Sequence record: PV682947.1
DNA: 64,000 nucleotides
Reading direction: 5' to 3' (one strand)
From: Escherichia phage WPEC4
The translations under genes and the position numbers were made by a program. Shown piece by piece: positions 28,218-28,947 of this stretch (position 1 is the first letter of the stretch; each line of letters begins with the position of its first letter). Below the pieces are notes generated by a model that searched no databases, had not been told where the DNA came from, and saw nothing but the letters and a program-made list of their open reading frames with translations.

Positions 28218-28895
28218 CTATTTAATGTTAAGTCTGGCACACAAACGAGAAACAGTTTTAGCATCCCATTTACCACCACGTGCTGTTGCTATTTTCTTAC
28301 TATTGAATTTTTCAGCAATAGTTTTGTAAGGTGTATTTAAATCTCTAAGGATCTCCAAACGTTCACGAAATGTCTCTGCAAAAGCGTCGGCTTTAACAGA
28401 GTTGTATTCCATTTTTCCTTTTCTACGTGCAGCGGCAGTTTTAGGATTAGCACTGCCTAATAAAACACCTTTGCTTTTTGCTACAGCAAGACCCTTTTTA
28501 ATACGATCAGCAATACCTCTAACTTCTTGTTCAGCCAGAACAGATAGAAGCTGTATAACCATTTTATCTGCGTCTGGCATGATGGCTATCTTAACATCGA
28601 TCATCTCCAGAAGAGTTGCTACAGAGGCGTTGTTACGACCCAAGCGGTCAACTTTAGCTACCAATAAAGTTGCTCCGGTAGCTTTACACATTTCAACCGC
28701 TTTGACCAGTTCCTTACGTTGCTTCCAATCGCCCTTACCCGAATAGTATTCAGAAAATTGACCAATAACTTCAGCATCAGGCACAGAGTCTAAGAAGTAA
28801 CGGATATCGTTCTCTTGGCTCTCCATACCATATTGTGCCTCACCTTTTTTCTGTTTAGAAAGACGACTGTAAACAACAAACTTTTTCATAACCAC
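28218..28895 (-). CDS. small serine recombinase (resolvase/invertase family)
   Basis: VYSRLS catalytic-Ser region, EYYSGKGD, VAKVDRLGRN, C-terminal HTH-like tail; SD AGGAGTGG. Confidence 0.8.
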   Translation of the reverse strand: MVMKKFVVYSRLSKQKKGEAQYGMESQENDIRYFLDSVPDAEVIGQFSEYYSGKGDWKQRKELVKAVEMCKATGATLLVAKVDRLGRNNASVATLLEMIDVKIAIMPDADKMVIQLLSVLAEQEVRGIADRIKKGLAVAKSKGVLLGSANPKTAAARRKGKMEYNSVKADAFAETFRERLEILRDLNTPYKTIAEKFNSKKIATARGGKWDAKTVSRLCARLNIK

Positions 28896-28918
28896 TCCTA
28901 AACTATTACTGTATTCTC

Positions 28919-28947
28919 ACTTTACAAAACGAATAAACACTTGTCAA
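28919..28947 (-). promoter_or_regulatory. sigma70-like promoter for recombinase
   Basis: Minus-strand CCTTGACAA-17-TAAAGT. Confidence 0.45.

Follow-up and report, generated by a model that had tools for sequence, protein, structure and literature searches.

The locus lies in a 64,000-nt stretch of the sequence record of Escherichia phage WPEC4 (PV682947.1), here called the window, and is occupied by a gene for a small serine recombinase on the minus strand (28218..28889), which runs from an ATG at 28889 to a stop codon at 28218-28220 and encodes 223 aa. An alternative start, a GTG at 28895 (minus strand, 28218..28895), gives the 225-aa reading frame that the first-pass annotation had reported together with the motifs YSRLS and VAKVDRLGRN; both motifs are present, and the match to the Pfam Resolvase domain (PF00239) is above the cut-off. 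Because this GTG overlaps the ribosome-binding site AGGAG, read from the sequence on the minus strand at 28895-28899, 5 nt before the ATG, the latter is the likely start of the gene. The 672-nt coding sequence is annotated identically in relatives (GenBank). Residues 1-144 (28458..28889, minus strand) comprise the catalytic domain and a long alpha-E helix, as delimited by Pfam, an AF2 model and Foldseek, and include the predicted nucleophile Ser11, whose codon (TCT) lies at 28857..28859 on the minus strand. Residues 145-223 (28218..28457, minus strand) make up a C-terminal DNA-binding region, a four-helix unit with the motif 'ARGGKW...TV.R'.

A sigma-70-like promoter of the form TTGACA-17-TAAAGT is found upstream of the gene on the minus strand (28947..28919). 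Taken alone, the promoter scan was at chance level (28 sites found vs 24.7 expected). A TTGACA-type promoter precedes the recombinase homologue at the equivalent position in most other lineages inspected, with promoter-like hexamers similarly placed in phiWec181, alia, FKP3, ICP1 and Shewanella phage 1/40 and a weaker TAGACA variant before the Vibrio phage homologue. It is on these equivalents that the promoter of its own, ascribed to the gene from the outset, is retained. The 9-mer CCTTGACAA, which forms the -35 region of this promoter, also occurs as the right arm of a dyad at 19,992-20,021.

The gene had also been described as sitting among small paralogous genes, and a five-member family (PHROG 2510) is indeed present on both sides of it, all on the minus strand (26166-26504, 27444-27827, 30426-30746, 31185-31511 and 34418-34732) and sharing the C-terminal motif ..NVDRVNWVKERV... 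Further paralogous pairs lie at 37146-38062 and at 29817-30371 with 36369-36668. The neighbouring gene at 28960-29172 encodes a 70-aa DUF7202 protein.

In order to assign the protein to a family, it was compared with domain, orthologue-group and structure databases. PF00239 is matched at 65.9 bits (cut-off 23.3, E=5e-18) over residues 5-142, and by 28/28 family members. Further matches were obtained to PHROG 125 'DNA invertase' (1e-32) and, partially, to PHROG 95 'integrase', while Tn3 and gamma-delta resolvase were its sequence matches among solved structures. An AF2 model built from the alignment has a mean pLDDT of 89 and a helix at residues 109-139; its Foldseek matches are the catalytic domains of Sin, TP901-1, gamma-delta and Bxb1, with Bxb1 as the best whole-chain match.

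Loss of the catalytic serine had been named as an observation that would undermine the assignment, and alignment shows Ser11 to be present and invariant across the 28 members. In this set of 28 diverse homologues, Y7, R9, S11, R58, D81, R82 and R85 (223-aa numbering) are all invariant. When gamma-delta resolvase is added to the alignment, they correspond to its Y6, R8, S10, R45, D67, R68 and R71 and vary little or not at all; beyond its N-terminal 33 residues, the gamma-delta reference used agrees with the structure-database hit. E122 and R129 align with gamma-delta E118 and R125, so that all of these resolvase residues have equivalents in the phage protein, and gamma-delta E124 corresponds to an Asp. 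The gene thus encodes a genuine small serine recombinase, whose active site is intact and which is apparently catalytically competent.

The C-terminal part sets the protein apart from the classical small enzymes. HTH_7 was matched neither by the recombinase, even when its C-terminal 85 aa were searched at E<=10, nor by any of the family members (0/28). The C-terminus matches positions 18-48 of 102 of PF07508 (Recombinase) with E=7e-4, just under the cut-off; 16/28 family members match PF07508, the match being above threshold in relatives, and the family profile aligns to the SPbeta and Bxb1 integrases over the C-terminal region. The DNA-binding domain therefore resembles a fragment of the 'Recombinase' domain of large integrases and not the helix-turn-helix of Hin or Tn3. 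Of the resolvase/invertase type proposed at first, the small serine recombinase stands; because HTH_7 is absent and the C-terminal match is to the beginning of the 'Recombinase' domain, the protein is not of the classical Hin/Gin/Tn3 type. For recombinase biology, the family offers a compact architecture of about 220 aa, with a DNA-binding fragment of integrase type, and several relatives come with clear 34-bp sites.

Other classes and more specific families were likewise compared. The protein lacks the zinc ribbon, the coiled coil and the rest of the Recombinase domain, and at 223 aa it falls outside the large serine recombinases, which have >400 aa, a full Recombinase domain, a zinc ribbon and a coiled coil. 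Its catalytic domain is N-terminal (residues 5-142), without the MerR-like HTH-first order of the IS607-type layout. All NCBIfam equivalogs scored below their cut-offs (YneB 32.5 vs 175 bits, XisF 27.4 vs 375, Mpi 22.6 vs 272, CcrB 17.5 vs 900), and none of the PADLOC defence-system models matched the recombinase.

The protein was further compared with characterised enzymes. With the Tn3/gamma-delta, Sin, beta and RK2 ParA recombinases it shares the catalytic domain and a similar size, and it has a long alpha-E helix. Compared with Tn3/gamma-delta, however, identity is ~26%, the beta-4/alpha-E loop is shorter, and the C-terminal domain is not HTH_7; there is no three-subsite res, no site was found by the phage gene, and the host is a virulent phage instead of a transposon or plasmid. 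With Bxb1, phiC31, TP901-1 and SPbeta SprA it has in common a C-terminal 'G-x-W...TV..' helix-turn-helix that matches the first third of their PF07508, but it is under half the size of these large serine recombinases and shows no sign of integration. Gin, Hin, Cin and Pin are likewise phage-encoded small serine recombinases, and Gin is the closest solved structure by family profile, though these enzymes carry a different DNA-binding domain.

The genome had been regarded as T4-like, which is not so: the window belongs to Phapecoctavirus (phAPEC8-like, Stephanstirmvirinae). Over the recombinase region, Escherichia phages WPEC1, WPEC2 and WPEC6 match it at 100% identity. The notion that such an enzyme would be unexpected in a virulent genome of this kind has to be dropped as well, since 62 phage records carry the protein at 99.6-100% identity and it is also found in Justusliebigvirus (about 57%) and related Klebsiella phages (52-55%); among the virulent E. 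coli phages of the Stephanstirmvirinae, the gene is conserved throughout the subfamily. Further homologues occur in phiWec181 and Citrobacter Tr1 (67-74% identity), in Vibrio phages and Shewanella phages 1/4 and 1/40 (35-38%) and in some ICP1 isolates (about 30%). Homologues in bacterial genomes sit in prophage-like regions.

The gene is already annotated publicly, as an uncharacterised family member; GenBank names in several relatives are resolvase, serine recombinase or DNA invertase. Several records (e.g. MT496970 138,283-138,954; OR062524; LR597654) give the recombinase the name 'methionine ABC transporter ATP-binding protein', and the DUF7202 gene bears an ABC-transporter label in some relatives' records. 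Both look like propagated annotation errors. In the literature, we found annotation-level remarks only: the recombinase was guessed to keep concatemers as single genomes (PMC10282059), and ESCO5 and ESCO37 were stated to have no predicted recombinase gene (PMC10269720). Contrary to the latter report, tblastn matches the recombinase in ESCO5 at 99.6% identity, and the 3.4 kb around the recombinase in ESCO37 are 98.3% identical to the window.

The window does not represent a single continuous piece of genome, but the recombinase lies well inside an intact piece (13,580-39,410). Between 6,932 and 13,580 runs a chain of ~88 modules of 77-78 nt or 152-155 nt in both orientations, copied from both sides of six breakpoints, four of them the piece ends at 6,935, 13,580, 39,411 and 62,576. 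The module region is absent from other phapecoctaviruses, and the six breakpoints share no motif. No other phapecoctavirus shows the order and orientation in which the window's large pieces follow one another, and the WPEC1/2/6 records contain these pieces in other orders. A k-mer size of 77 is among the SPAdes defaults, and at k=77 a SNP bubble spans 2k+1, or 155 nt. The 6.9-13.6 kb region and the joins at 39,411 and 62,576 are assembly artefacts, apparently small assembly-graph edges (k=77) and contigs from a mixed or heterogeneous sample that were concatenated into the record. Two candidate rearrangements were set aside on this ground: the dense inverted repeats of 150-310 nt at 7.5-13 kb, the longest in the window, as a recombination substrate, are breakpoint-copy modules absent from other phapecoctaviruses, and the join at 39,411, as the end of a 33.5-kb inversion containing the recombinase, is still spanned by short modules in the normal arrangement.

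Next, we considered selection on the gene and its history. Compared with two relatives, the recombinase differs at 5-16 nt in 5-15 codons, all changes being synonymous, and its flanks are 95-97% identical in the same two genomes; by this comparison, the gene is under purifying selection. In Justusliebigvirus it is part of a block in the order endolysin, PhoH, HslV-like peptidase, methyltransferase, recombinase, phosphatase and DprA-like protein, and in Shewanella phage 1/40 it is found in the same PhoH-HslV-...-DprA-like order. Phapecoctavirus has the same block order without the recombinase, with a terminator and an unrelated small ORF in that slot; its own recombinase lies 15 kb from the Justusliebigvirus-type slot, on the other strand. 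The block shared from Shewanella phage 1/40 to Justusliebigvirus and the different position in Phapecoctavirus point to a gene that is old in the lineage, vertically inherited and moved once. A conserved partner gene was sought and rejected, the small upstream ORFs not being homologous across lineages, and the possibility that a site had remained in the ancestral slot of Phapecoctavirus was rejected too, as only the terminator is found there.

Two observations point against old vertical conservation. The ICP1 homologue lies in an accessory stretch present in some isolates only, and in Schickermooser (MK373788, 11,300-11,955) the 5' third of the recombinase contains six indels (1, 1, 7, 1, 2 and 7 nt) within ~190 nt, while the remainder is nearly identical and only the C-terminal 128 codons are annotated. 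The Schickermooser copy is a true pseudogene or else reflects a local problem of sequencing; should the sequence be right, growth does not require the recombinase. The homologue of ICP1 isolate 2017_DRC_48 (record 17.6-21.7 kb) is placed among genes without classical gp numbers, between gp30 and gp41.

The target site had been left open at first, and neither the upstream search nor the genome-wide search for conserved dyads produced a candidate. Upstream of the window recombinase, the best 34-bp dyad matches at 11 of 16 positions, a score reached by 8.7% of random windows, and in other Stephanstirmvirinae the upstream dyads score lower or inconsistently, none being significant. An upstream dyad in FKP3 was rejected because of its odd spacer and lack of conservation. 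Between complete Phapecoctavirus and Justusliebigvirus genomes, the only conserved dyads are terminators and one promoter-associated dyad. The latter, a 30-bp dyad at 19,992-20,021 (TTGTCAAGG-N12-CCTTGACAA), is identical at 29-30/30 positions in Justusliebigvirus within surroundings of ~77% identity, and its right arm doubles as the -35 element in a good promoter, TTGACA-17-TATAGT. We rejected it as a target on account of this overlap, of a match only mildly unusual for a region of 77% identity, and of similar dyads in unrelated contigs.

Clear candidate sites were found beside the gene in more distant relatives. Full-length homologues of the recombinase (35-40% identity, 95-99% coverage) are encoded on small non-mobilisable plasmids; two plasmids inspected in full are 5.8 kb in size and have five or six annotated genes, the recombinase being preceded by a long non-coding stretch. 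The Klebsiella plasmid, Shewanella phages 1/4 and 1/40 and seven viral contigs, one of them of 128 kb, each have one 34-bp dyad (16+2+16) that begins 42-67 bp upstream of the start codon, and five of the contig dyads share the pattern ACAAA..TAACG-NN-CGTTA..TTTGT. All dyad sites checked (10/10) are single-copy in their locus, including the whole 5.8-kb Klebsiella plasmid. In having a dyad immediately upstream of the gene, these relatives resemble small resolvases. An arrangement with one site per replicon, beside the gene, is that of a resolvase or an autoregulated operator and not that of an invertase.

The same two-part architecture is found in the predicted multimer-resolution recombinases of pLM20P5 of Paracoccus yeei, pMaD11 of Marinovum and 5.8-kb Klebsiella plasmids. 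For pLM20P5, a multimer resolution module was annotated by its authors as a predicted function (PMC4447125). These recombinases, however, reside on circular plasmids where dimers threaten inheritance, and there is no comparable site beside the phage gene.

Because the relatives are found on tiny plasmids and have a single upstream dyad, a resolvase-type role appears to be a better reading than an inversion switch; its basis is the plasmids and dyads of relatives, with no site in this genome. Of the two roles that the first-pass annotation had offered, invertase or resolvase, inversion is thus spoken against by the lack of inverted sites and of polymorphism in ~60 genomes over window 16,000-62,576 and the tail-fibre region, and the resolvase type is favoured by the relatives. 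We tentatively propose, in the knowledge that this could easily prove wrong, that the recombinase is a resolvase-type enzyme which acts on phage DNA early in infection and monomerises or circularises it. The resolvase direction, the phage DNA as substrate and the early timing are what we infer here.

According to this proposal, host RNA polymerase would probably transcribe the recombinase early from its own promoter. Recombinase dimers would bind a dyad-symmetric site of ~30-34 bp, and two directly repeated copies of the site would be synapsed, with both strands cut through Ser11 and exchanged by subunit rotation. In a virulent phage, such paired sites would be provided by a genome dimer, a concatemer or a terminally redundant infecting molecule, and the reaction would yield monomeric circles early in infection, comparable in role to P1 Cre-lox or to plasmid multimer resolution. 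In phage P1, the site-specific recombinase Cre acts at lox to circularise terminally redundant infecting DNA and to resolve dimers. Cre is a tyrosine recombinase and P1 is temperate, so that Cre-lox would be a functional analogue only, and no lox-like site was identified for the phage recombinase.

Several points count against this resolvase reading. Neither the window nor other Stephanstirmvirinae have a significant dyad before the recombinase, a need for multimer resolution is not obvious in phages packaging from concatemers, and the function of the plasmid homologues is itself predicted. In addition, the homologue is accessory in ICP1 and the Schickermooser copy has six indels. A more far-reaching version, in which a lineage of large virulent myoviruses has kept a minimal serine recombinase since before the split of the E. 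coli and Shewanella phages as a Cre-like circularisation or monomerisation system, with the site moved off the gene in Stephanstirmvirinae, seems unlikely to us. If such a system were real, the lytic cycle would include a site-specific recombination step undescribed for this group.

The differing positions of the gene in sister genera would also fit a selfish or leftover cassette that moves between positions without serving replication, or a DNA-binding regulator that no longer recombines, an explanation we regard as distinctly unlikely. The slot is empty in Phapecoctavirus (terminator only) where Justusliebigvirus has the recombinase, the upstream neighbours do not align across the lineages compared, and the alia recombinase and its downstream ORF are without counterpart in the Phapecoctavirus slot; the accessory gene in ICP1 and the broken copy in Schickermooser would agree with this as well. 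On the other hand, the catalytic residues are all invariant, non-synonymous changes are zero among the genomes compared, and the gene is present in 62/62 near-identical records. The wider DNA-metabolism block is moreover syntenic from Shewanella to E. coli phages, and no element ends or repeats bracket the recombinase.

A target outside the phage would account for the failure to find one in the phage genome. The recombinase, expressed early from an early-type promoter, could rearrange or cut a site in bacterial chromosomal, prophage or satellite DNA or in a defence island, as a means of host takeover or counter-defence. Small serine recombinases have been linked to bacterial defence islands (PMC13552941), and prophage-encoded serine invertases alter phage sensitivity (PMC12529663). 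Positive evidence for an action on host or competitor DNA is nevertheless lacking, PADLOC gave no match, and the site of the relatives adjoins their own gene. Since the phages with homologues infect unrelated hosts (Escherichia, Klebsiella, Vibrio and Shewanella), a shared host site is unlikely, and we give an action of this kind a low probability.

A DNA invertase would flip a phage segment, for instance as a tail-fibre or promoter switch like Gin, Cin and Hin, or perhaps at a distance like Mpi of Bacteroides. The label of PHROG 125, the position of Gin as the best PDB sequence match of the family profile and the location of homologues next to tail or baseplate genes in some prophages are in favour of such a role, as is a weak match to the Mpi family model, although its 22.6 bits are far under the cut-off of 272. 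In agreement with the first impression that flanking inverted repeats were lacking, an inverted-repeat search for crossover sites in the collinear piece with the recombinase (14,000-39,400) returned a terminator hairpin pair and imperfect matches at chance level, and a genome-wide scan of the close relative Mt1B1_P17 returned only terminator hairpins. A 21-22-bp perfect inverted repeat at 17,294 and 22,030 was rejected as an intrinsic terminator hairpin (AACCCGC-TTCG-GCGGGTT followed by a T-run). Some 60 relatives (~60) are collinear over window 16,000-62,576, save for the window's own mis-joins, without an inverted segment, and show no inversion across the tail-fibre and baseplate region, in a comparison that covered the Mt1B1_P17 genome apart from ~69 kb (1-55 kb and 80-93.6 kb). 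Unlike in the Gin/Hin/Cin/Pin systems, we thus see no inverted crossover pair, no invertible segment and no inversion polymorphism, and the relatives carry one site, not two. An inversion switch is therefore disfavoured on comparative grounds, and we consider it very unlikely.

An integrase of a hidden temperate or plasmid-prophage lifestyle, as might be read from the partial PHROG 95 match, the integrase-like DNA-binding part and the many viral-contig homologues near contig ends, is extremely improbable, given a protein of 223 aa only without a zinc-ribbon or coiled-coil domain, a region absent from 5,426 complete E. coli genomes including plasmids, and phages of this group that are described as lytic by their authors (PMC10282059, PMC10269720). 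With no match of the recombinase region in these bacterial genomes, nothing points to lysogeny or to carriage as a plasmid. This bears on therapy, for which phages of this group have been put forward: automated screens raise a flag for possible lysogeny at any recombinase, and evidence that the recombinase is neither an integrase nor an inversion switch helps in the reading of such flags.

Further features were noted in the course of the searches. A non-coding element of ~124 nt lies outside the window, in a gene-free region of ~1.5 kb of related genomes (Mt1B1_P17, L009 543-684; alia, L022 701-824; KP2025, L023 701-825). It consists of four consecutive hairpins, is 73-81% identical across genera and gave no match in Rfam, nor did the surrounding non-coding region. 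Because its stems are kept by compensatory and G-T (wobble) changes, the latter on one strand only, the sequence suggests an unannotated structured RNA; the same changes, together with its location outside the window, led us to reject the long palindromes of this region (L009 543-684) as a recombination site. Mt1B1_P17 has the same ~328-bp sequence at both ends (L009 1-328 and 150,874-151,202), either a direct terminal repeat or an untrimmed overlap of a circular assembly. Within the window, an AT-rich, near-perfect palindrome of 34 bp at 58,901-58,934 is located in a divergent intergenic region of ~480 bp between a tRNA block and plus-strand early genes (by Mt1B1_P17 position) and may be an origin or a divergent promoter region. 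A cluster of tRNA genes at 60,068-61,993 comprises ten, for Met, Arg, Ser, Asn, Thr, Gly, Gln, Pro, Ile and Met.
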